Source: Naegleria gruberi
Taxonomy: Eukaryota
Direction: 5' to 3' (one strand)
Assembly (NCBI GenBank): GCA_000004985.1
Contig: GG738909.1
DNA length: 64,000 nt
This document shows positions 3,672-31,517 of this stretch, piece by piece (position 1 is the first letter of the stretch; each line of letters starts with the position of its first letter). Under the pieces are notes generated by a model that had not been told where the DNA came from, ran no database searches, and saw only the letters and a list, made by a program, of their open reading frames with translations. The position numbers and the translations under genes were made by a program.

Positions 3672-4800
3672 TTATTCCCTGAAAATAACAGTTCTATTCT
3701 TAATAGTACTCCACTTGAATCTCTTGTGAACCCATGAGAGAGCAATAACAAGTGACAATGAAGCCAAAACCTTCAAACCCATCTTCTTTCTTGGTTCAGT
3801 ATCTGGAGCAGCACAGTAAGTCAAATATGTACTGACGTCCTTAGCCATTTGTGAAACTGAAGCTGGAGTACCATCATCGAATTCAATAGCACCATCAGAG
3901 AGTGGAGGAGCCATACCAATAGCACCACCTGGGAAGTAAGCATTCCAATAGAGACCTTCTCTCAAAGAAACACCAGCAGGAGCATCCTCATAACCAGTCA
4001 ACAATGAGAAAATATAATCTTCATTATGTGGACGACCCTTGACAATGACTGACAAATCTGGTGGCAAAGCACCTCCGTTCATAGATCTAGCAGCTTGTTC
4101 GTTTTTGTATGGTGATTGCATGTAATCGAAAGCCTTGGCCTTACGAGTTGTTGGTTCTCCTTGGGAGTCTGGTTCACCTTCAACATCAACAGCAGCAGCC
4201 AAAACTTTGATTTCAGCATCAGTGAAAGCAACATTGAGATTACGGAAAGCAATTTCATTCATACCGTGGCAAGCACTACAGATTTCTCTATAAACTTTAT
4301 AACCTCTTCTAATGGAGGCAGCATCGAAAGAACCAGCGAGTTCCTTGTGTGGCCATGGTTGGGCTGGAGGAATAGCAGTACCATCAGAAGCTTCAACACT
4401 ATTCACATTGTTAAAGACGAGGAAACTACCAGCTGATAATCCAGTAGCAGCCATAAGGAGCTTTGGATTAGTGGCAAACTGTAGTTTAAAATTCCAATGT
4501 ATTAGTTATATCAACATTAATATTTGTCGTTAAACAAGACAAGAAGGAATAATATTATCGTTAACAAATATGATATCATTTAAAAGAGCAAATTGTTGTT
4601 TCATCATAATAAAAATTTGGAGCGTATTACATGTTGATGAGAATGTAGAGAGAGATGAAGAGATGAGTACAAGATGATGAAAAAGTATGTTATCATTCGC
4701 ACCGAGACCAAAACGAGACAATAGAGAATTTTAAAACAATAACAAGAGTTTAAACACACAACGCGGCAAATAGGCTACTAACCTTCTTGAAAGCGAACAT
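3672..4800 (-). CDS. Cytochrome c1 (complex III), probably 2 exons: 4783..4800 and 3672..4478
   Basis: Main exon carries the CSACHG heme motif, the cyt c1 core (GYKVYREICSACHGMNEIAFRNL...), and a C-terminal TM anchor. An acceptor (ctacag) lies at 4479-4484 immediately upstream and in frame (FATNPKLLMAATG). A candidate first exon ATGTTCGCTTTCAAGAAG followed by a GTTAGT donor sits at 4783..4800. That gives a 304-nt intron and a predicted N-terminus MFAFKKFATNPKLL. The exon-1 assignment is an inference. Confidence 0.75.
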
Positions 4801-7901: not shown

Positions 7902-9711
7902 ATGTCTATACGGGCCATGTCTACAAATGAGTTTGGCTCTCCAAGCAATATGAAGATGGTAGAGCCATCTTTAGGTTCTGTTAATAAGAGAACCTCAACA
8001 GCAAAACAAGGAGCACTTATTAAGAATGTCTCTGGCCGAAGATTACCTCACTCTTTTAATCAAATGAATATTCAACATCAACTCAATGTTCATACAGCAA
8101 AATTTGGAGTTATTGATGATGACGATGAAGAGGAACAGGAAAAGAAGGTTGTAAAGAAAAAGTCTAAACTGAAAAAAGAAGTACCTAGATTGCCTTCCGA
8201 AGAGTTAGCTTCTTCAAGTTACCTCAAATCACGATTAAGTCCAATCAATCACGAGTCGGAACAATTAAGTGGAAGAAGTAGTGCTTCTTCTGTCAGTTCT
8301 AGGTCTCACATTAATCCTCTATTGACTCCAATTTTAGATGAAGATTTTAAAAGAGAGAGATTTGAGGAAACATTAAACAAATCACTTAAAGAAAAGAGTT
8401 TTGAAGGTGAGCGAAAATCAGGACTCAGTTCTTTGAGGAGCAGTAATGATATGGATCTTGCTCCAATGTCGACAAGAAAGAGGGATGAAGAGTTACAGAG
8501 ATCTACATTGGAACCAATCAAGAGACCTCTTTCCAGAACATCGGATTCAAAATTGTTGGGAGCAAGCGTAACAACTACCCATTCTAATAGAGCCAAACTG
8601 TGCATTCAATCGTTGGCTGAGGGATATGTAGATGCTTTTGAGGAATTATTCTTATTGGCCCATAGAGATCCAGTGGTAAGTTTTCTAAAATATTGAATGG
8701 GGTGAATATTCTAATACTATACAATTAGCTTGTGGATGATATTACAGATACCTATTTTACGTTAACGGACGATAGACTCAGATCTATTAAGGAAATGCTT
8801 GTGAAGGCAGAATCTTATAAGAGAAGAGGAAAATTCGAAAAGGTTTATGATATTTTCAAACAAATTGCAGACTATTTTGAATCAGAAAGAGATTATAATA
8901 CAATGTACTATTTCTATGAATTGGGTGAAAATACAGCAAGGAGAGTAAGTTGTCAAACCTAATTGAATCATAACATTTTTCAAAGTCTTCAAATTCACAA
9001 TTAGAAGGACTATCAAAGGAAAATGCTGGTAAAATGTATGAAAGAATGGGGAAGGTCAACATGGCTGTTAAATATCACGAAGCTCATATGAGTTTAGCTC
9101 ACTCAGCAGGCGATCAAGTCCAAGAGGAGAGAGCAATCAATCAATTGTGGAGAGTGTACATGAAGATGGGAGAGGATTCAGAAAATCAATCGGATCTTCA
9201 TAACGCTTGTCTTTTCTATGAAAAGAGTTTAAAGAATGCAAAAATGCTGAAAGATAAGGAAATGATTTCCAATTCTTTATTCAAATTGGGAAATGTATAT
9301 AAATCTCTACAGGACTTTGAGAAGGCAATTGAGTACCAACAAATGTATACTACCGTATGTGAAGACATTGAGGATAAGAAGGGAAAGTCAGATTCATTTT
9401 GTGCTTTGGGAGAGCTTTATGAACAAACAAACGAAATCGATAAGGCAATCGAAACATATAATCAATTTTTATCTAGTGCAGAAGAAGCACAGGATGATGA
9501 CAGAATTGGTACAGCATGTATTAAACTTGGTATGGCCTTGGGGAGTAAGGGCCAACATGACGAAAGTATCGCCTTTTTTGAGAGAAGTTTTGAACTTGCC
9601 AAGAAAACCAAAGATAATGCCAAGATTGGTGAAGCCAAAGTGAGATTGGGTTTTGCAAAAGGTAACGCCTCGATGCAAAAACACATGATGTCTCTGAATA
9701 AAAACTTTTAA
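7902..9711 (+). CDS. TPR-repeat protein, 3 exons (7902..8675, 8729..8944, ~9019..9711)
   Basis: ATG at 7902. GTAAGT donor at 8676 with a caattag acceptor at 8728 (53-nt intron, phase 0). GTAAGT donor at 8945. The second acceptor is ambiguous: AG at 9004 is out of phase, AG at 9018 is in phase (74-nt intron). Exon 3 encodes TPR-like repeats (MYERMGKVNMAVKYHEAHMSLAHSAGD..., FKLGNVYKSLQDFEKAIEY...). TAA at 9709-9711. Confidence 0.6.
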
Positions 9712-10697
9712 TTATTATGTACATTATTTTGACCTGTTTCTTGCATGGCCTGATTCATTAAGCCAGCAACAATTTTTTCCAACATTGGATTTCCTCCATT
9801 GATATCTTGAATTAATTTTACAAGTTCTATATGTACAAGCTTTAGCTTTTCTACTGTTACAGAGAAACTGTTGGTTTCTGTCATCAGTTCCAAAGCATAA
9901 TCCTTTAAAATTTTGTCTGATGATTTTTGTTTCAAAATGTTGAGAAGACGAGTGTCACCTGATTTGAATTGTTCCAAAATACAGTGAATAATTGGGTAAG
10001 AGAACTTTCCCTCTGTTAAATCTTCACAATAACTCTTATTTGTATGATAAATATCACTTTGCAAGTTCAGATAGTCATCCAAAATTTGGAAGAGAACTGA
10101 CAATGAATTAACAAGTGGAGTAAAATCATATGTTTTGCTATCCTTCTGGGTTGAACTTGCTTTCATCAATCCAACTCCAAGTCTAAACAATCCACCAGTC
10201 TTATTTTGCACCATTACAAGATAATCTTGTTCCGAAGGACAAATTCCATTGTCTCTCCAATAAATATCACAACCTTGACCTTCATGTAATAAGAGCAATT
10301 CATCCATAAAGACAGTGATTGCCTCGGAAAATGATTGTTGGTCACTAAAGCTTGAATTTAACTTTTGAATATCCTTCAAAGCTTCAAAATATACATAATT
10401 TGCACAATTGATGGTTGCAGGAGTGCCATAGATGAGGTGAGCACATGGTTTTCCTCTTCTCAATTTACTATTATCTTCAATATCATCAACTAGTAAACTG
10501 GCATTGTGCAATTTATCAATAATACTCTTAATTACATTCAATTCATCTTCGGAAAGTTTAAACCACTCATTAAAAGCATCAATTAACTTGGAACGAAAAC
10601 CCTTTCCATTAGTATTATTAATCAAATAAGAATATGGATCCAAATGAGGCTTTACAGTTCCATTCTTTAATTTCTCATGATGGTCATTCGAATTCAT
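9708..10697 (-). CDS. Geranylgeranyl diphosphate synthase (type III short-chain trans-prenyltransferase)
   Basis: ATG at 10695-10697. First Asp-rich motif LLVDDIEDNSKLRRG. Second motif FQILDDYLNL. Fungal/animal BTS1/GGPS1-like length (329 aa). Its TAA (9708-9710, minus) overlaps the TAA of the convergent TPR gene. Confidence 0.85.
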   Translation of the reverse strand: MNSNDHHEKLKNGTVKPHLDPYSYLINNTNGKGFRSKLIDAFNEWFKLSEDELNVIKSIIDKLHNASLLVDDIEDNSKLRRGKPCAHLIYGTPATINCANYVYFEALKDIQKLNSSFSDQQSFSEAITVFMDELLLLHEGQGCDIYWRDNGICPSEQDYLVMVQNKTGGLFRLGVGLMKASSTQKDSKTYDFTPLVNSLSVLFQILDDYLNLQSDIYHTNKSYCEDLTEGKFSYPIIHCILEQFKSGDTRLLNILKQKSSDKILKDYALELMTETNSFSVTVEKLKLVHIELVKLIQDINGGNPMLEKIVAGLMNQAMQETGQNNVHNN

Positions 10698-11219
10698 TCT
10701 TTTCTCTATACACTATATTTTACACTTCCGATAATTGTTGTGAAAAATTCTCTCTCTTCTATTTACAAAGCCACACACGTAAAACAAAGACTAAATCTCC
10801 CCTTTACGTTTTGATGTTTTTTTTTTAATTTTTAATTAAATAAATTGGTGGTTCCTTGTTCACTCGTCCAAATAGTTAATTTTTGACGTGATTGAAAAAT
10901 TGAAAACACAAGTTGTTGCAACACGTTGGATGGAAACGTTGAACAATGTTCGAACGTACTTCTTTTTTTAATGGTTGGCTAGATGACGTTTTAGATTCAA
11001 TGGAAAATGTTTACAATGGATAATAGAATAATACTTAAATGTATTATATTAAAATAGACCTATTTTGGTGCTTGCAAATTTGCAATGATGTTTAATTAGG
11101 ACCTTGTAGTGCTCCATATTCACTCAGATTGATTCTGTTTCTTGCAAGAAAAGTAATTTACCTGCTCTATCGTGTTGGGCCTTTCTTATTCTTTTTACAA
11201 TGAATAATTTCTCTTTTGG

Positions 11220-12704
11220 TCACTCAATAAAACCATAATTTTTCTTTTTCAGTTGCTTTTTCATACGTTTCAGATACTTGTTTCCATTGTCTATTCCATT
11301 ATCATATACATTTAAATGTTTTAATTTCTTCATTTTGGATAGGTATTTCACTCCTGAATCTTCAATAAAATTCTCAGAAATATCCAGACGTGTTAAGTGT
11401 TTCAATTTAGATAAGGATTTAGCACCTTCAGTTTCAATACTATTTCTATGAACATCAAGTTCAGTCAATTTTTCCAGCTTGCTTATAGATTCAGCTCCTT
11501 CATTTCCAATTGAAATTTCAGAAATCCAAAGTTTAATCAATTGATTCAATCCACTTATTAGTTTTGCCCCCTCATCTCCTAAATTATTAGCTGATATATC
11601 TAAAAAAGTTAAATTTGTCATTTCACTAATTGATTTGGTGCCATCTATTCCTATTAAAGTTGAGTGCATATAAAGTGTTTTCAATTGTTTCATTTCACTT
11701 ATTACCTTTGCACCAGCGTCACCAATCCAGTTGTCACCAATATTCAGACTGATCAGTTGTTTCAAAGAGGTTATTGATTGGACTCCATCAACTGAAACAA
11801 TTTGTATTGCATGAGCTGACAAATTAGTTAATTGTTTCAATTCACATATAAACTTAATTCCTTCCTCATCAATTCCATTTAATCCAACACTCAGATCAGT
11901 CAAATTTTTCATTTGACTAATACATTTGCATCCTTCTGTCCTTATTTCGTTATGATCTATGTCAAGTTTTGTTAGTTGACTTAGTTCTATCAAAGATTTT
12001 ACACCACTATCATCAATACCATTTTCACTTATTTCAAGGCTTGTCAATTGTTTCATTCCAATCATTGATTCAATACCCAAGTTTGTGATCTTACACTTAC
12101 TAATATTTAGAATAGTCAGTTTTTCAAGTTTTGATAAATATTCAACAGCCTTATAACCAATATCATTATAGCCAATACTCAATTCCGTAAGATTAATCAA
12201 ATTACCAATTGATTGAGTTGCTTCCGAACTAATCACATTACTTATCAGATCAAGTTTCTTCAATTGGTCCATCTTACTAATAATTTTAGCACCATCATCA
12301 TCAATTAAATAGGAATCAAATACCAGAGTTTGCAAATTCTTAAACTTCCCAAATACCTTTAAACTTTCATTACATATTTTCGATTCCTCCGTAAAGTGCA
12401 CTCCACAAATACATTCCAAAAATTGGCTCCTTTCCATTAATTTAATTCTTTCCTCATCAATGGGCTGTTTAAATTTCAAATAAATTTCCGAACGTTCCTT
12501 GATTACTCTCATCCATTGTCTTGATATACGAGTGTAATTTTTCAAAACAAACCAATTTGAATATTTACCTCCTATAAGAAAGGAAATAATTTCAAAACAA
12601 ATGTCATCGGGAAATTCTTTAATTTCATGCTGATGACTGATTATTACTTGGTTATTCTCTTCTGTGAAGTTGGGATCAATTCCTGTTTCTCGTAATCGTT
12701 TCAT
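11220..12704 (-). CDS. F-box-like / RNI-type leucine-rich repeat protein
   Basis: Likely ATG at 12702-12704 (MKRLRETGIDPNF...). The ORF-track start at 12911 reads through the tRNA-Gln gene and is not credible. N-terminal F-box-like segment IKEFPDDICFEIISFL. About 12 RNI-like LRRs (LTELSIGYNDIGYKAVEYLSKLEKLTILNISKCKITNLGIESM...). TGA at 11220-11222. Confidence 0.75.
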   Translation of the reverse strand: MKRLRETGIDPNFTEENNQVIISHQHEIKEFPDDICFEIISFLIGGKYSNWFVLKNYTRISRQWMRVIKERSEIYLKFKQPIDEERIKLMERSQFLECICGVHFTEESKICNESLKVFGKFKNLQTLVFDSYLIDDDGAKIISKMDQLKKLDLISNVISSEATQSIGNLINLTELSIGYNDIGYKAVEYLSKLEKLTILNISKCKITNLGIESMIGMKQLTSLEISENGIDDSGVKSLIELSQLTKLDIDHNEIRTEGCKCISQMKNLTDLSVGLNGIDEEGIKFICELKQLTNLSAHAIQIVSVDGVQSITSLKQLISLNIGDNWIGDAGAKVISEMKQLKTLYMHSTLIGIDGTKSISEMTNLTFLDISANNLGDEGAKLISGLNQLIKLWISEISIGNEGAESISKLEKLTELDVHRNSIETEGAKSLSKLKHLTRLDISENFIEDSGVKYLSKMKKLKHLNVYDNGIDNGNKYLKRMKKQLKKKNYGFIE

Positions 12705-12811
12705 TTTTTTTATTGTAAAAACAAATCGACTCTTTCGCAATAGCAGCGAGCCAAAACCAAGCCTAACCTTAATTGATGTAAGATTTACTGCCTTTTTACA
12801 ATAATGTGCTC

Positions 12812-12882
12812 GTCTCGTGGTGTAATGGTAGCATAGTGGACTTTGAATCCATTGACGGAGGTTCGATTCCTCCCGAGACGGT
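12812..12882 (+). tRNA. tRNA-Gln (anticodon TTG)
   Basis: cgtctcg tg gtgtaatggtagcat a gtgga ctTTGaa tccat tgac ggaggttcgattcctcc cgagacg g. 7-bp acceptor stem, D-arm GTGTAATGGT, anticodon loop cttTTGaa, T-arm GGTTCGATTCC. The overall sequence closely resembles eukaryotic tRNA-Gln(UUG). Confidence 0.85.
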
Positions 12883-13237
12883 AAACGTGGCGAGCCATAC
12901 GAATTTTGCATGTGGACGATAACTATTTTTTTACTTTCCTGGTATAGCCATTTCTTGAAATACCATTAGAATCGAAAATATTAATTGGGTTTTTTGAAAT
13001 TGTTCAGATATTTATGTAATGTACAAAAGGAATTCAAAGAAGAGGAATATTAACTTTCTATTGGAATTCTAGTGATATTTTTGAGACTTTGCATATTTCT
13101 ATTGGGAATACTATTTTGGACGCTTTTCAGTTTAACAATATCTTTAGAAATTCGTTCCTATTGCGATAAAGGAATATTCTTTATATTCATTGTATTAAGG
13201 GAAAATTGTTCATATTTCACATTGTAAGTAACTGAAT

Positions 13238-13355
13238 GGCTACGGCCATATCACGATGAATGCACCTCATCCCGTCCGATTTGAGAAGTTAAGCATCGTC
13301 GAGCCACATCAGTACTGAGGTTGGAGACAACTTGGGAACCTGTGGTGCTCTAGTC
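13238..13355 (+). rRNA. 5S ribosomal RNA, copy 2
   Basis: Identical to copy 1 (2416..2533) except g->c 5 nt from the 3' end. Followed by ttttt at 13356..13360. Confidence 0.9.
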
Positions 13356-13504
13356 TTTTTATATTCATTTTGACTTTTGTGAAATTAGTCTTGGTTTTTA
13401 TTCATTTAATACTTGAATTAATACTATTGATAGCTATGTAAAAAATATTTTAAAATAATTTCCTGAAACATTCATGAATAGTGTATATTTACTTTGAATA
13501 TAAT

Positions 13505-13577
13505 GGGGATGTAGCTCACATGGTAGAGCGCTTCTTTAGCATGGAAGAGGTACGGGGATCGATACCCCGCATCTCCA
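13505..13577 (+). tRNA. tRNA-Ala (anticodon AGC)
   Basis: ggggatg ta gctc acatggta gagc g cttct ttAGCat ggaag aggt acggggatcgataccccg catctcc a. G3:U70 identity pair present. Anticodon loop ttAGCat. Confidence 0.9.
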
Positions 13578-13905
13578 CTTCTATCTTTTTTGTACTTTTT
13601 ACAGCACATTAATTATTTACTGTTCTTTGCATGTTCCTTGACCACATGAAACTCTACACAAAAACTATTTATTCGATTGAAAACCAATAAACTACCACAT
13701 TAAACTCTAAAAAAATGCAAGTATTTGAATTTAAGAAATCCATTAAGAACAATCCATTCGCCCTTACAACCGATTCCTTAACAATTTTGTTGAACAAGAT
13801 TATTTAGCAGAGGCGTTATTTGCTTTATACTTTTTAATAGAGAATGAAAGTTCATTTCCTATCACTATTACTTTCTTAAAGTTCCATGAATTGAATAGGG
13901 AAGAA

Positions 13906-14688
13906 ATGGATTATCTAAATGAGCACTGTCCTAGATTTGGAATTACTGACGAACACATTAGCATGTATTCAGATATTGCAGAGAGATACATTTCCTTTGA
14001 TAAGTATAGTACATGCCCAATTGTTTCTGTATTGCAAAAAGAACTTCCTTTCGTTCATAGTGTTTCAGCAAGTCCAAATCAATTTTCACATGGAAAGACA
14101 GATTTGGTTATTAAGAAATATTCCTTTGAGAAAAGTTATGAGTATGTGATTAATGAGCTAGAATTTCATAGAAAGTATAGTCATCCAAATATATAGTACC
14201 ATATTAGTTTAAAAAAGGATGAAATTACTCTGGTCATGGAATACAAGAATGGAACTGGTTATACACCAAAGAATTTTAAAGATATTCAAAGTTACATGAG
14301 TCAATTATTGAATGCATGTGCCTACATGAGACATAATTTTGTAACTCATCACAATTTGAAACCTGATAATATCGTTTATGATAGAAATGATTCAGTGCTG
14401 AAAATAATTGATGTTGAATATTGTAGACATGTTGCTGGACGATTTAATATTGGAAATCCATTTTACAAAGCTCCTGAAAAAGAGAATTACGGCACTGTAG
14501 GACCATCCTCTGATATGTACAGTGTTGGAATTATTTTTCGAAATATTGTTAAATCTAATTATTATGAAAAGACAAGAGAATCAGGTCAATTAGCAGATGC
14601 TTTGATTTTGAAAATGCTTTCGAAATATAAGGAGGTCAGAATTGATCCATTAAGAGCACTTGAACATGAATTTTTTACAATAAATTAA
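13906..14688 (+). pseudogene. Protein-kinase-like gene with degenerate catalytic motifs and an in-frame TAG (14194..14196)
   Basis: Kinase fold is recognisable (…HRKYSHPNI | YHISLKKDEITLVMEYKNG…, HHNLKPDNIVYD, IDVEY, YKAPE, DMYSVGII). No Gly-rich loop (GKTDLVIKKY). HRD becomes HHN (catalytic Asp to Asn). DFG becomes DVE. One in-frame TAG interrupts subdomain IV-V at 14194-14196. No GT-AG intron of length divisible by 3 can remove it. TAG is used as a true stop elsewhere in this window (TPS and SMYD genes). Confidence 0.6.
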
Positions 14689-15129
14689 TTTGATTGAAGA
14701 CCAATCAGAGCAGCTGCAGATTGTTATACGAGAAGGAGTTCTTCGGGATGTTCTGTTGACTGTGCTTGTTTTATGTGGAAAGGAGTGAGTGAATTCAATT
14801 TGAATCATGATTTGAAGATTTACACAACAAGTCATAATCATGAAGGTATTGGTTTTGTTGGTGGATTCATGTTAATGTTAGATAAGTATCAATTCACTCA
14901 AATTGGAACCTTGTCTAGAAGTGAATTTCCCTGCAGGAGGAACTAGTGCAATAATTCCATCTGGTGCGAATATTCTCAAGAATGATTATACACTTACTGC
15001 ATTACTATTTGGAAAATTGATTTATTTGTTTGAATTGAATGAGAAAAAGTTTGTGAATCTCCATAAATATGAAGATTGCCAAATCGAAAAAGATGTAAAT
15101 TAAAAAGTGTAAACTATTCTAAGAAGAAT

Positions 15130-16176
15130 TTATTGCTTTACAAAAAGTGCCCAATCAACTCTTGGAATGATGCTGTCATTTGAGTTATTGTGCAATCTGG
15201 CACACATATGTCCTGCATACAATTCAGTCTTGTAAATTGTTCCATTATCATCAACAGTTACAGGAACAGATACGTAACCTCTTGAAATATCTTGCATGTC
15301 CATGATTGGCCACTCACTTTTAACATCTTTAGCTGATTTTACATCTCCTCTCCAAACACCAGCATCAGAAAATGCAGAAAAAACTCCAATCCATCCACTG
15401 ATATAGGTTGGTCCTGATCCTCCTCCAAATACATGAGCAATTCTGTTCCACCACTTGGTATCTGGATTACCAGAGGCACTTTTAACAAATTGCTCCAAAA
15501 CAGGAAGCAACATGTCAGACCACTTTTTCATAAGTTTGGCCTTTGTATCAAATTCAATTAATCTCTTTGCCCTTTCGTACAAATTTTGCCAATCTTCTTT
15601 CTCTCCCAATAAGGTTACACTTGGTAAGCCACAACGCAAAACATACTTGTAATCAAAGTAGTTCTTGGTTGTTGACATTAACACAACAGCACCAACCATT
15701 TTTTCCAAATTTGTTGTGGTAGAAAAATCTGGCATGATCCAATCTCTCACTGATGGATCTTTGATATTCTTTGCAATTTGTTCAGTCATTCTCAAAGTTA
15801 AATCCGCACAATCGGCAGTGAAGAGAGTTCCACCTCCCACAACAACCAATTCCTTTTTACCATCAAAGTCAACAAATTTGCTTCTCAATTCTTCTGATTT
15901 TGAGTTGACATAATTAGCAAATTGAGTTGCAATTGCAATCCAAACATCATCAGGTCTAATGACTAAATTATGATGTTCTGAATATGCCAAAATTGCTGAG
16001 TGAATAAATGAATTATTTCCAACTGTCAGGAAATCAGGACTTGAGCTACAGCTTGATTTTACCAAGGTGAATTTTTCCTTGGTTTTTGTTGGATCGGGAA
16101 GAATCTGCTTGATCTCAAAAGCTGGAAGGGAAACTTCGTTTGGTTTCTTTGTGGAGACAGTAAATGTGATGGGCAT
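15130..16176 (-). CDS. Conserved protein of unknown function (348 aa), possibly DUF4419-like
   Basis: Intronless ORF, ATG at 16174-16176, TAA at 15130-15132. No recognisable catalytic motif. Segments such as [27 protein letters not shown] and [19 protein letters not shown] recall the fungal/protist DUF4419 family. That family assignment is from memory and is unverified. Same strand as the terpene synthase, 198 nt downstream of it. Confidence 0.55.
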
Positions 16177-16373
16177 ATTTTTTTTCAGTGTGTTGTTTAA
16201 CCAAGTTCCAAATCACAAGTCAACCAAAAATTGACATTCAAAATTGAAATGTTACTGAATTGACATTACAAAGACAAAGGAAGAAGAAGTATTGATAAAA
16301 GTTATTAAAAGGTACTACTTCCATTCATATTGTTATTTAATTTTGTGAGGAATTTACATGAATTTATTTACAA

Positions 16374-17543
16374 CTAATTAGTGAGTGAAAAAGTGCAAAA
16401 TTTGCAGATCGAGTAAGCAAATGAGTCCAATATGCATGAAAAGGAGGATTTCTTCATGGAATTTTCAATATCATCAAGATAGGTGAGCATATCATTATCA
16501 GACCAAGGTTTGAGGAATGGCATTAACACAGTTTCAATCATTGTCTTGATTACTGATTTCTTGGAGTGGTATTCAGGAAGGAGGTGGTTGGAATGTTGAA
16601 ATCTCTTTGAAATGATGCACCAAGTACAATATCCATTCATTACTTCATCGATGGATTCAAATTGTTTGGAATTGTCTGGGTTGGAAGATTTGATTGTTTC
16701 CATTCGCTGCAATTTCTCTTTGATTAATTCCAATACTTCATTGAGGGATGACTCAAAATCTTCAACTGGGAGTTCTTTTAGTTGGCTGTATGACAAGCCC
16801 TCCTTGAATCCCTTATTCAAAATGATAAAATTGTTAACTACCTTCTTGGCATCTTTAGCGATTGAGGCAACATCATTGAACAAACTGATAATGTCACAAG
16901 CCAAGTGGTTATATTCGATTACATGATCACATGTGTCGATTTCTGGAATGCCTTTAAAGAAATTATTAATTGTAAAGAAAAGAGAGGACATTGAGTCGAC
17001 TCTTCTCTCTTCCAAAAAGGCAAGTAAGGTTTCTTCTGAGACTAGTCCATTATTTTCACATTCATTCTTTGCCTTCTCTATGAGATTGGTTCCAATAGTC
17101 AAGAATTCCAAAACCTTTCCTCTGATACCATCGAATCTACTGTCTTTGATCAGATTATAGACGAGCGTCCCCATCTTATGAGCAGGATTTGTTGCTTGTA
17201 CTGATTCACCTCTGAATATCTTGCAATGTGATTTCATCTCTTCAATAGAAATGTCTGTAATCTTCTCGTCACATGCATCATCAACAATGGAAATGTATGC
17301 AACCAAAGGAATTACAATCTCTGCAAATAACTTTTCGTCTTCTTTGACCATAGTATTAAAGCAGAGAACCAACCACTGTGAAAGATCATATGATCCACAG
17401 TATGTGTACTTGTTGTCTCTGAATTGTAAATCGTTACCAATTAGATTGCTGAAAAGGAGAGAACAATGTTGATCAGATTTCTTCTTATCCAAAGGAACGA
17501 AAATTGCTGACTTGATTTGATTAAAATTGACTTGGGCTTGCAT
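16374..17543 (-). CDS. Microbial-type class I terpene synthase (389 aa)
   Basis: Likely ATG at 17541-17543 (MQAQVNFNQ...). The ORF-track start at 17651 is a GTG. Asp-rich motif IVDDACDEK (DDxxD/E) about 90 aa from the N-terminus. NSE/DTE motif FNDVASIAKD about 140 aa downstream. Length and spacing are typical of fungal and amoebozoan sesquiterpene synthases. TAG stop at 16374-16376. Confidence 0.75.
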   Translation of the reverse strand: MQAQVNFNQIKSAIFVPLDKKKSDQHCSLLFSNLIGNDLQFRDNKYTYCGSYDLSQWLVLCFNTMVKEDEKLFAEIVIPLVAYISIVDDACDEKITDISIEEMKSHCKIFRGESVQATNPAHKMGTLVYNLIKDSRFDGIRGKVLEFLTIGTNLIEKAKNECENNGLVSEETLLAFLEERRVDSMSSLFFTINNFFKGIPEIDTCDHVIEYNHLACDIISLFNDVASIAKDAKKVVNNFIILNKGFKEGLSYSQLKELPVEDFESSLNEVLELIKEKLQRMETIKSSNPDNSKQFESIDEVMNGYCTWCIISKRFQHSNHLLPEYHSKKSVIKTMIETVLMPFLKPWSDNDMLTYLDDIENSMKKSSFSCILDSFAYSICKFCTFSLTN

Positions 17544-17768
17544 TTTGGTTGTTGTTGTGTGAAATATATTATTGTTTGGTTGTTTTTTTTTGTTGTGAAA
17601 TACAGCTATCTGATCGTGTGTTAATAATAGCTTAATGCAAAATATTTTCACCCACTTTTGCTTGAAGCAAGTTTTTTTGCGACGGATGGTATCTTGCTAC
17701 AAATATCTTTGCTTCAAAACCACCCGAAAATATTCAATCATATGTTGTTTAAATTTTATTAACCAGAT

Positions 17769-17859
17769 GGTGAGTTGGTCGAGTGGTCTAAGACGACACG
17801 TTAAGGTATGCCTAATACCGTGTTCCGCAAGGGCGTGGGTTCAAATCCCACACTCATCA
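17769..17859 (+). tRNA. Class II tRNA, probably tRNA-Leu (anticodon AAG), with a probable 11-nt intron
   Basis: ggtgagt tg gtc gagtggtctaa gac ga acacg ttAAGg [tatgcctaata] c cgtgt tccgcaagggc gtggg ttcaaat cccac actcatc a. 7-bp acceptor stem with one G-U pair. 3-bp D-stem with the GAGTGGTCTAA loop typical of Leu/Ser. 11-nt variable arm. The anticodon stem acacg/cgtgt encloses 18 nt, consistent with a 7-nt loop plus an intron after position 37. Followed by a T-run (ttttttatct). The anticodon and intron assignment is an inference. Confidence 0.7.
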
Positions 17860-30284: not shown

Positions 30285-31517
30285 ATGTCGCAATTCAAAG
30301 CACTTGTTTCAAACATTGCTGTTTTATTGATTCTTTCATTGAGCAGTGTTTTGATTCTTGCTCACAATGGTGAAGATCATTCACTCCCAAAACCAAATCT
30401 ACCTGCAGAGAATAATCTTCCTTCCAAGTATTTCCATTTCAAGCCAACTCGTATTAGACGTTACTATATTCAAGCTGAGAAGGTTGAGTGGAATTATGGA
30501 CCTTATGGAAAGGACATGTTCATGGGAATGGATTTTTCAGCAGACAATCGTCCATCCAACACTACCATTGGTCTCAAATATCTCAAAGCAAAGTATATCG
30601 AATATACTGACAAGACTTTCTCCACAAAGAAAGCTCAAGCTCCACATTTGGGAATTGTTGGTCCAATTATAAGAGCTGAAGTTGGTGAACAAATTAGAAT
30701 TCTCTTCAAGAATGCTTTGGAATTCCCAGCAGGTATCCATCCACACGGAGTTCATTATGATAAACAATCTGAAGGAGCTGCCTATGTAGATAACGATAAG
30801 GACATGTCATTTGCAACTCCTGGAAGTGGTGATGCTGTAGCTGCCGGAGCAACTTTCGAATATATTTTCAATGTACCAGATCGTGCAGGTCCTCTTGATA
30901 ATAGTCCATTAAGCTCCATTCCGTGGATGTATCACTCCCATGCTTTGGATGAACCAGCAGAAACTCAAGCTGGCTTGATTGGTTTCATTGTCATTACTAG
31001 AAAGGGATTTGCTAGAAAGAATGGTTCTCCAAAGGATGTTGACAGAGAATTCTTTGTCATGCCTAAAATATTTGATGAACAAACAAGTTTCTTTTTAGAT
31101 CAAAACATTCAAAAGTATTTGAATGCAAGTGGTCAATTGACTGAAGCTCAATATAAGGCATTTAAGGCAGGTGGTTTAACTGCTAGTAATCAAAAGGATT
31201 CCATCAATGGCTACATGAGTGTCAATAATATTGGAGGATTTGACATGTGTCAAGGTGAAAGAGTTAGATGGTATGTTGGTACAATTGGTAATGTTGATTT
31301 GCATCCTGTCCATTGGCATGGTAACGTTGGACTCGAAGATGGCATCAGATTGGTCGACACTGTCTTTGTAGGCCCTGGAATTGCAAGAGCTTTGGATATG
31401 GATGTTGATAATCCTGGAAATTGGTTATTCCACTGTCACATTGATAACCATCATATGGATGGTATGGTTGATATTTTCAAAGTATATCACAAACATTCTG
31501 ATTTCTGTAAAAAGTAA
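30285..31517 (+). CDS. Secreted ceruloplasmin/hephaestin-like multicopper oxidase, single two-cupredoxin unit (410 aa)
   Basis: ATG at 30285 with a signal peptide (MSQFKALVSNIAVLLILSLSSVLILA). Ceruloplasmin A-domain-like segments LGPIIRAEVGEQIRILFKNALEFPAGIHPHGVHY and INGYMSVNNIGGFDMCQGERVRWY. All four copper-ligand motifs are present: HPHG, YHSH, HPVHWHG, HCHIDNHHMDGM. TAA at 31515-31517. Confidence 0.8.
   Translation: MSQFKALVSNIAVLLILSLSSVLILAHNGEDHSLPKPNLPAENNLPSKYFHFKPTRIRRYYIQAEKVEWNYGPYGKDMFMGMDFSADNRPSNTTIGLKYLKAKYIEYTDKTFSTKKAQAPHLGIVGPIIRAEVGEQIRILFKNALEFPAGIHPHGVHYDKQSEGAAYVDNDKDMSFATPGSGDAVAAGATFEYIFNVPDRAGPLDNSPLSSIPWMYHSHALDEPAETQAGLIGFIVITRKGFARKNGSPKDVDREFFVMPKIFDEQTSFFLDQNIQKYLNASGQLTEAQYKAFKAGGLTASNQKDSINGYMSVNNIGGFDMCQGERVRWYVGTIGNVDLHPVHWHGNVGLEDGIRLVDTVFVGPGIARALDMDVDNPGNWLFHCHIDNHHMDGMVDIFKVYHKHSDFCKK

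Follow-up and report, generated by a model that had tools for sequence, protein, structure and literature searches.

The stretch of DNA analysed here, 64,000 nucleotides of contig GG738909.1 (GenBank assembly GCA_000004985.1) and hereafter called the window, comes from Naegleria gruberi, a heterolobosean amoeboflagellate of the Discoba. Three genes on its minus strand are the subject of this report: a gene for a putative class I, microbial-type terpene synthase (TPS) of 389 residues (16374..17543), a gene for a DUF4419 protein of 348 residues immediately downstream of it (15130-16176), and a gene for a predicted type III geranylgeranyl diphosphate synthase (GGPPS) of 329 residues (9708..10697). 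A first reading of the bare sequence (the original prediction) had joined them into a terpenoid locus, with the TPS and its neighbour as a laterally acquired or lineage-specific module in an accessory region of a genome that otherwise resembled that of a ciliated opisthokont. Every feature which it described is present in the window at its expected position, and the proposed host is refuted by the source of the DNA, N. gruberi being a member of the Heterolobosea. The TPS and DUF4419 genes do form a co-oriented head-to-tail tandem, although the spacer measures 197 nucleotides and not 198, and the GGPPS gene lies on the same strand as the TPS gene at a distance of 5,676 nucleotides, as had been described.

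The terpene synthase gene and its relatives

The TPS gene consists of a single open reading frame (ORF) without introns. The length of 389 residues is counted from the first ATG, and the frame stays open further upstream to a GTG at 17651. The deduced protein matches the Pfam family PF19086 (Terpene_syn_C_2) at 27.1 bits, a small margin over the cut-off of 23.7. Its predicted metal-binding motifs could be located by comparison with the other Naegleria TPSs described below, eight sequences in total, and with the fungal synthase BcBOT2. The Asp-rich DDxxD motif reads DDACDE (residues 88-93; 17265..17282, minus strand) and is found in all eight Naegleria TPSs, compared with FDDQFDE in BcBOT2. The second metal-binding motif, of the NSE type, is predicted at NDVASIAKD (residues 223-231; 16851..16877, minus strand); it fits the consensus (N/D)D(L/I/V)x(S/T)xxxE except for the final Asp in place of Glu, and the paralog P0133 has Glu at this position. 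The sequence RRVDS (residues 180-184; 16992..17006, minus strand) contains Arg180, located 43 residues before Asn223 of the NSE motif, which we take to be a candidate for the pyrophosphate-sensor arginine on the basis of the motif pattern of bacterial class I TPSs. A putative counterpart of the C-terminal RY pair of class I enzymes is KRF (residues 313-315; 16599..16607, minus strand), which stands opposite GRY in the alignment with BcBOT2; seven of the eight aligned Naegleria proteins have Phe in place of Tyr (P0133 retains RY, and P0005 diverges here). The residues invariant across all eight comprise DDACD (88-92), R180, D183 and S184, N223, D224, S227 and K230, and G304.

The AlphaFold2 model of the protein is an all-helical bundle with a predicted local distance difference test score (pLDDT) of 79 and a predicted template modelling score of 0.79, in which the last ~45-60 residues have low confidence. 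A Foldseek comparison of this model with the PDB returned 138 matches at E <= 1e-3 (best E = 9e-7), and the best 50 of the 138 are all class I terpene synthases with template modelling (TM) scores of 0.62-0.76 when normalised to the target. A profile of the eight Naegleria TPSs also matched solved synthases, namely BcBOT2 (E = 1.3e-6), pentalenene synthase (E = 1e-5) and trichodiene synthase (E = 8e-4), and its alignment with BcBOT2 brings the DDxxD, NSE and RY motifs into register. The Pfam match, the motifs in register with BcBOT2 and the predicted class I cyclase fold thus bear out the identification of the 389-residue protein as a class I microbial-type terpene synthase, as far as can be judged from sequence and predicted structure. 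A different assignment of the NSE motif, to NNFIILNKG, had come from a weak alignment with trichodiene synthase and was dropped, because in the richer profile it is NDVASIAKD that lines up with the NSE motif in both BcBOT2 and pentalenene synthase.

The TPS and its closest paralog, P0003, share a C-terminal extension of ~60 residues (~330-389; window 16374-16550), which has no counterpart in the remaining family members and whose pLDDT in the model is below 55. The extension is hydrophobic and rich in Cys and Phe at its end (FSCILDSFAYSICKFCTFSLTN), and it may act as a membrane or lipid anchor. A collection of 15 billion proteins has no entry for the exact 389-residue sequence; therefore, the public gene set of N. 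gruberi probably lacks an annotation for the copy in the window.

N. gruberi has three paralogs of this gene, which are 93, 68 and 70% identical to it. P0003, the 93%-identical one, forms a singleton cluster and lies on a different scaffold from that of the window TPS, from which it differs by scattered substitutions with no frameshift or stop and with identical catalytic motifs. When we ran a profile of these four sequences against 1.84 billion representative proteins at E <= 1e-3, only five matches were obtained, all of them from Naegleria: NAEGRDRAFT_52878 and NAEGRDRAFT_54762 of N. gruberi, FDP41_010467 of N. fowleri, and C9374_009223 and C9374_013610 of N. lovaniensis. No bacterial, fungal or amoebozoan protein was found in this search. 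The original prediction had asked which of these three groups would hold the nearest neighbours of the TPS, and the homology searches point to none of them, leading to Naegleria only. A word-indexed search of 5.8 billion proteins likewise returned only the N. gruberi paralogs, and a further homology search with the eight-sequence profile found nothing beyond Naegleria. The best matches outside the four-sequence subfamily were N. gruberi 52878 (E = 2e-12) and the N. fowleri protein (E = 4.5e-9), and the identity between the window TPS and the other Naegleria TPS clades is just 22-29%. All seven Naegleria relatives of the window TPS score above the gathering cut-off of PF19086 (28-48 bits), and the best matches outside the subfamily have in common with it several unusual motifs, namely Y.S.VDDACD, ND..S..K(D/E) and G(Y/F)..WC..S.R(F/Y).H. 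The window TPS thus appears as one of four copies in a subfamily that is expanded in N. gruberi and seen only there, and of the two origins that the original prediction had offered, the lineage-specific one agrees with this four-copy subfamily, while recent transfer does not agree with nearest relatives that are all Naegleria proteins. A published tree joins the N. gruberi TPSs with those of dictyostelids and Physarum and puts them closer to fungal synthases than to bacterial ones (PMC6902781).

The base composition of the TPS gene stands out in part. Its GC content at third codon positions (GC3) of 0.396 is the highest among the 27 ORFs of the window (mean 0.286, standard deviation 0.049), which places it 2.2 standard deviations above the mean, and its codon-usage fit is the lowest of the 27, at -1.7 standard deviations; its overall GC content of 0.359 equals the window mean. 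The high GC3 and weak codon fit are most simply read as a sign of low expression.

Two family members outside the window have an unusual architecture. In N. fowleri (865 residues; P0126/P0131) and N. lovaniensis (891 residues; P0132), the class I TPS domain makes up the N-terminal part of a fusion protein whose C-terminal part is a multi-pass domain containing three His boxes. The C-terminal domain of the N. lovaniensis protein matches PF00487 (FA_desaturase) at 33.5 bits (cut-off 29.7), and the N. fowleri gene is one uninterrupted ORF (L018:6001-8598). No desaturase-like domain was found on the 3-kb contig of the N. gruberi-like counterpart (L019). Such a fusion of a TPS with a putative membrane di-iron oxygenase may represent an undescribed bifunctional architecture and, though outside the window, it is a more striking finding than the window TPS.

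Genes neighbouring the terpene synthase

The protein encoded downstream of the TPS gene is identical to XP_002671047.1 (NAEGRDRAFT_73972). It had been described as possibly DUF4419-like, and a match over the full length of PF14388 (E = 6e-107, 358 bits, profile positions 1-303 of 303) confirms the assignment. Its codon usage is typical of the ORFs of the window. The analysis turned up nothing that connects the protein functionally with the TPS. We detected 1,139 homologs, with a range that covers N. gruberi (in multiple copies), N. fowleri, N. lovaniensis, Acrasis, dictyostelids, oomycetes, Tribonema and bacteria; giant viruses also have DUF4419 proteins (PMC7125106). Identity is 45-60% among family members from Heterolobosea, dictyostelids, oomycetes and Tribonema. 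The confidently predicted model of the protein found no relative among solved structures. DUF4419 is thus a widespread protein and a conserved orphan family worth dedicated study. Tandem copies of DUF4419 genes occur on an environmental eukaryotic contig (L004:4695-9071) and in Heterostelium (PPL_08782/PPL_08783). A 99%-identical copy of the window DUF4419 gene, together with two TPS genes, is found in the ENA sample ERZ929261 (PRJEB11402), which is labelled as a metagenome and has contigs (L019, L020 and L021) encoding proteins that cluster at 90% or more identity with N. gruberi proteins; the sample evidently contains an amoeba of the N. gruberi group.

The third gene was correctly recognised in the original prediction as encoding a type III GGPP synthase, in view of a PF00348 match (E = 1e-64) and its closest kinship to GGPS1: the best solved relative is human GGPS1 (2q80; E = 4e-81), and yeast BTS1 follows at E = 6e-63. 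The first aspartate-rich motif is DDIED (residues 71-75, without insertion) and the second is DDYLN (207-211), and the codon usage is typical for the window. By these features, the protein appears to be a canonical housekeeping enzyme of the GGPS1/BTS1 type. Type III GGPPS is the enzyme that every eukaryote needs for protein geranylgeranylation.

We compared the locus with 15 other distinct DUF4419 loci, from N. fowleri, N. lovaniensis, Dictyostelium discoideum, one environmental eukaryote and 11 bacteria. Within 6-10 kb of the DUF4419 gene, a TPS or polyprenyl synthase gene is missing from all 15. The bacterial DUF4419 genes have no conserved neighbour in 10 loci, the scanned neighbours being mostly without a Pfam family, and in N. 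fowleri and N. lovaniensis the surroundings of DUF4419 show no synteny with the window beyond DUF4419 itself. The view from the TPS side is similar. At three other Naegleria TPS loci, one from N. fowleri and two N. gruberi-like, neither DUF4419 nor GGPPS was found and the neighbours are unrelated; one of the three is followed after 145 nucleotides by a co-oriented, unrelated gene for a low-complexity membrane protein. Judged from the best 120 of 1,139 DUF4419 matches, no scaffold with a DUF4419 paralog has the length of a scaffold that bears one of the five other annotated N. gruberi TPS genes. Among the ORFs of at least 200 residues in the window, 10 of the 26 intergenic gaps are 200 nucleotides or shorter, so the 197-nucleotide head-to-tail gap is the norm in this compact genome. 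The 16 ORFs that we scanned, located from 3.7 to 32.7 kb in the window, include no cytochrome P450, no methyltransferase and no other tailoring enzyme, and the genes next to the TPS include no recognisable tailoring or transport gene. With no recurring linkage, ordinary spacing and no tailoring enzymes nearby, the proposal of a terpenoid module does not hold up, and the TPS, DUF4419 and GGPPS genes are most likely ordinary neighbours rather than a co-inherited biosynthetic module.

Five unrelated genes separate the GGPPS gene from the TPS/DUF4419 pair. The first encodes a leucine-rich-repeat (LRR) protein with matches to LRR_6, LRR_8 and LRR_4, whose mechanical ORF has 563 residues (11220..12911, minus strand). 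Since the 5' end of this ORF overlaps a tRNA-Gln gene of the other strand, translation probably begins at an internal methionine (MKRLRETG...). The F-box part of the earlier F-box/LRR description finds no support, no Pfam F-box match being obtained within the N-terminal 133 residues even at E <= 1, whereas the LRR part is present. The Pol III (RNA polymerase III) cluster was recovered as described, by ARAGORN and Rfam, and all its genes are on the plus strand: tRNA-Gln(TTG) at 12810-12882, 5S rRNA at 13238-13356 (Rfam 98.5 bits) and tRNA-Ala(AGC) at 13505-13578, the two tRNA genes having Rfam scores of 68.8 and 53.6 bits. A fourth Pol III gene, absent from the original list, is an intron-containing tRNA-Leu(AAG) with a long variable arm (17769-17859, plus strand; Rfam tRNA 47.4 bits), which lies between the TPS gene and a SET-MYND gene, 225 nucleotides upstream of the TPS ATG and on the opposite strand; the intron follows the anticodon loop, ARAGORN reported an intron but could not name the tRNA, and the anticodon was read from the sequence. 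The last intervening gene is protein-kinase-like (13891..14688, plus strand) and consists of two ORFs in the same frame (13891-14196 and 14236-14688) with one in-frame TAG at 14194-14196 inside the motif HPNI*. Read through this TAG, it gives a single Pkinase match of 82.6 bits that spans the stop. The catalytic motifs are degenerate, HRD being replaced by HHN (HHNLKPDN) and DFG by DVE. With the in-frame TAG and the degenerate HRD and DFG motifs, calling it a decayed kinase was fair; the gene may be a pseudogene or be expressed by read-through, or it may encode a pseudokinase and be affected by a sequencing error.

The flanking genes are core eukaryotic ones: cytochrome c1 (3672-4454, minus strand), which has no connection to the TPS finding, a TPR-repeat gene (9034-9711, plus strand) convergent with the GGPPS gene, the SET-MYND gene and ADA2. 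The stop codons of the TPR-repeat and GGPPS genes overlap by 4 nucleotides (9708-9711), an instance of tight gene packing. A two-domain multicopper oxidase gene (Cu-oxidase_2 and Cu-oxidase_3; 30285-31517, plus strand) is likewise unconnected with the TPS finding and 13 kb away. The accessory character once suggested for this region finds no support, the surrounding genes being housekeeping genes, with cytochrome c1, ADA2 and the SET-MYND protein among them.

Interpretation of the locus

We consider the best explanation to be that the window contains a functional-looking class I TPS of a divergent Naegleria family, duplicated within the lineage and placed beside the DUF4419 and GGPPS genes incidentally in a gene-dense genome, and we would give this reading a probability of about 80%. 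By analogy with characterised class I enzymes, Asp88, Asp89 and Asp92 together with Asn223, Ser227 and Asp231 would bind a trinuclear Mg2+ cluster, which with Arg180 and Arg314 would hold a prenyl diphosphate, either farnesyl diphosphate (FPP) or geranylgeranyl diphosphate (GGPP), by its diphosphate group. This grip would trigger ionisation, followed by carbocation cyclisation inside the alpha-helical barrel. The very divergent TPS family is common to the three sequenced Naegleria species, with the four-copy subfamily expanded in N. gruberi. Since the four-copy subfamily falls within the Naegleria TPS family, the window gene would stem from duplication within the lineage and not from recent transfer. 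Its placement 197 nucleotides from DUF4419 and 5.7 kb from GGPPS would be incidental. An acquisition of the TPS in an ancient Naegleria ancestor is compatible with this explanation.

Several observations weigh against it. The Pfam score of the TPS exceeds the cut-off by just 3.4 bits. Its top GC3 and weakest codon fit are what a foreign gene might show, and they also fit low expression. For P0003-P0005, the lack of a DUF4419 neighbour is deduced from the unequal lengths of the scaffolds and from the best 120 of 1,139 DUF4419 matches. Moreover, by a rough inferred estimate that assumes ~15,700 genes, 7 TPS genes and ~20 isoprenoid-pathway genes, the a priori chance of each specific TPS pairing, with DUF4419 or with GGPPS within 6 kb, is below 1% (well under), and that of a TPS lying near any isoprenoid gene is roughly 5-10%. 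With chances of co-location this low, coincidence is not proven, and ~5-7% is left for a real module.

In such a functional terpenoid module, the nearby GGPPS would supply GGPP, the TPS would make a hydrocarbon from it, and the DUF4419 protein would modify or handle the product. The co-oriented head-to-tail arrangement of the TPS and DUF4419 genes with its gap of 197 nucleotides speaks for this idea, as does the GGPPS gene 5.7 kb off on the same strand. The high conservation of DUF4419 with many invariant polar residues suggests an enzyme, genes of both families occur in dictyostelids as well as in Naegleria (PMC6156593), and a two-gene TPS cluster has an amoebal precedent in DdTPS8-CYP521A1 (PMC6524965). 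However, the adjacency is missing at 15 of 15 other DUF4419 loci and at 3 of 3 other TPS loci, and DUF4419 is far wider in distribution than microbial-type TPSs, reaching oomycetes, Tribonema, bacteria and giant viruses (PMC7125106). The spacing is ordinary for the window, five unrelated genes, one of them a pseudogene, intervene between the GGPPS gene and the pair, and the GGPPS itself is of the standard housekeeping type. We therefore regard a functional module as improbable, even if it survives slightly better than the other alternatives. The narrower proposal, that the TPS and DUF4419 make up a two-gene terpenoid module found only in N. gruberi and that the terpene or a precursor of it is acted on by DUF4419, is more doubtful still.

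Another explanation is that the ORF is inactive, either a decaying TPS paralog or a helical protein without catalysis. A Pfam score barely over the threshold, the apparent lack of annotation with the exact protein missing from protein collections, weak codon bias, low model confidence in the last ~45-60 residues and a clear pseudogene two genes away all speak for this. Nevertheless, the ORF is unbroken over its 389 codons, its catalytic motifs are all preserved in the same form as in the 93%-identical P0003, the differences from P0003 are scattered substitutions without a frameshift or stop, and the core fold is predicted confidently. An inactive ORF thus seems unlikely, and marginally less plausible than a module.

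The weakest alternative, a recent horizontal transfer that brought the TPS, alone or together with DUF4419, into an accessory region and had a bacterium, fungus or amoebozoan as its source, could draw on the lack of an ortholog of the four-copy subfamily above ~29% identity in N. fowleri and N. lovaniensis, on the extreme GC3 and codon fit among the 27 ORFs, and on the pseudogene and dispersed Pol III genes close by, but it has very little left in its favour when the best matches outside the subfamily are Naegleria TPSs with the same idiosyncratic motifs, no bacterial, fungal or amoebozoan protein is found at E <= 1e-3 among the 1.84 billion representatives, the overall GC content lies at the window mean with a GC3 deviation of just ~2 standard deviations, the TPS is flanked by core eukaryotic genes, and DUF4419 is ordinary in its codon usage, with clear orthologs elsewhere in the Heterolobosea. 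A TPS that belongs to a four-copy N. gruberi subfamily, and whose detectable relatives among these representatives are all Naegleria TPSs, lends no support to a recent lateral acquisition.

Under the preferred reading of an in-lineage duplicate with incidental neighbours, the gain is a modest one: an apparently unannotated copy is added to the known set of N. gruberi TPS genes, which belong to a very divergent family common to the three sequenced Naegleria species. Terpenes of free-living amoebae are thought to serve as volatile signals, as has been shown for dictyostelids, and the Naegleria TPSs are therefore reasonable targets for expression followed by gas chromatography-mass spectrometry. 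The supposed cluster with DUF4419 and GGPPS offers no guide for the functional annotation of DUF4419; a two-gene TPS/DUF4419 module, if true, would be the first functional handle on that family.

Comparison with known systems

TPS genes of N. gruberi had already been reported by Chen et al. 2016 (PNAS 113:12132), according to the passages that refer to that work in PMC6902781 and PMC6156593; N. gruberi accessions do not appear in the supplement of the former. The copy in the window, being absent from protein collections, is probably not in the published list. Amoebal TPSs, including those of dictyostelids, PpolyTPS1/4 of Physarum and those of N. gruberi, resemble it as single alpha-domain class I enzymes of the PF19086 type from free-living amoeboid protists, whereas the divergence of the Naegleria family is such that HMMER connects it with no protein from outside Naegleria among the 1.84 billion representatives at E <= 1e-3. 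Our literature search found no biochemical characterisation of any Naegleria TPS.

Among fungal enzymes, the presilphiperfolan-8-beta-ol synthase BcBOT2 (8h6q), trichodiene synthase (1jfa) and aristolochene synthase (4kux) have the class I fold predicted for the window TPS, with 14-16% identity in structural alignments. BcBOT2 and the window TPS also have in common an NSE motif that ends, unusually, in Asp (NDVLSYRKD in BcBOT2). In contrast to the RY pair of the fungal cyclases, the window TPS has RF, plus the extra C-terminal tail of ~60 residues that is modelled with low confidence. The best structural matches are bacterial, namely hydropyrene synthase (8b4l), 1-epi-cubenol synthase (9hqa) and pentalenene synthase (1ps1), with TM scores up to 0.76 (target-normalised) and E-values of ~1e-6; pentalenene synthase is also matched by the profile of the eight Naegleria sequences at E = 1e-5. 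The conserved Arg ~43-46 residues before the NSE motif of bacterial class I synthases has a candidate counterpart in the window TPS. Identity is 11-16%, however, and nothing points to a closer kinship with the bacterial enzymes than with the fungal ones.

Two known systems are comparable in gene arrangement. The DdTPS8-CYP521A1 pair of Dictyostelium discoideum (PMC6524965) is a known small terpenoid cluster of a protist and, as in the window, places a TPS gene next to another gene in an amoeba. The partner of DdTPS8 is a P450 with a demonstrated role, whereas the partner in the window is a DUF4419 protein, which has neither a catalytic precedent nor a conserved linkage to TPS genes. Fungal prenyltransferase-terpene synthases such as the fusicoccadiene synthase PaFS (5ern/5er8) combine a class I cyclase with a prenyltransferase domain of the same type III GGPPS family (E = 4e-47). 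Both domains are located in one polypeptide in enzymes of the PaFS type, whereas the window has one gene for each, the two lying 5.7 kb from each other on either side of five unrelated genes, and its GGPPS is nearest to human GGPS1.

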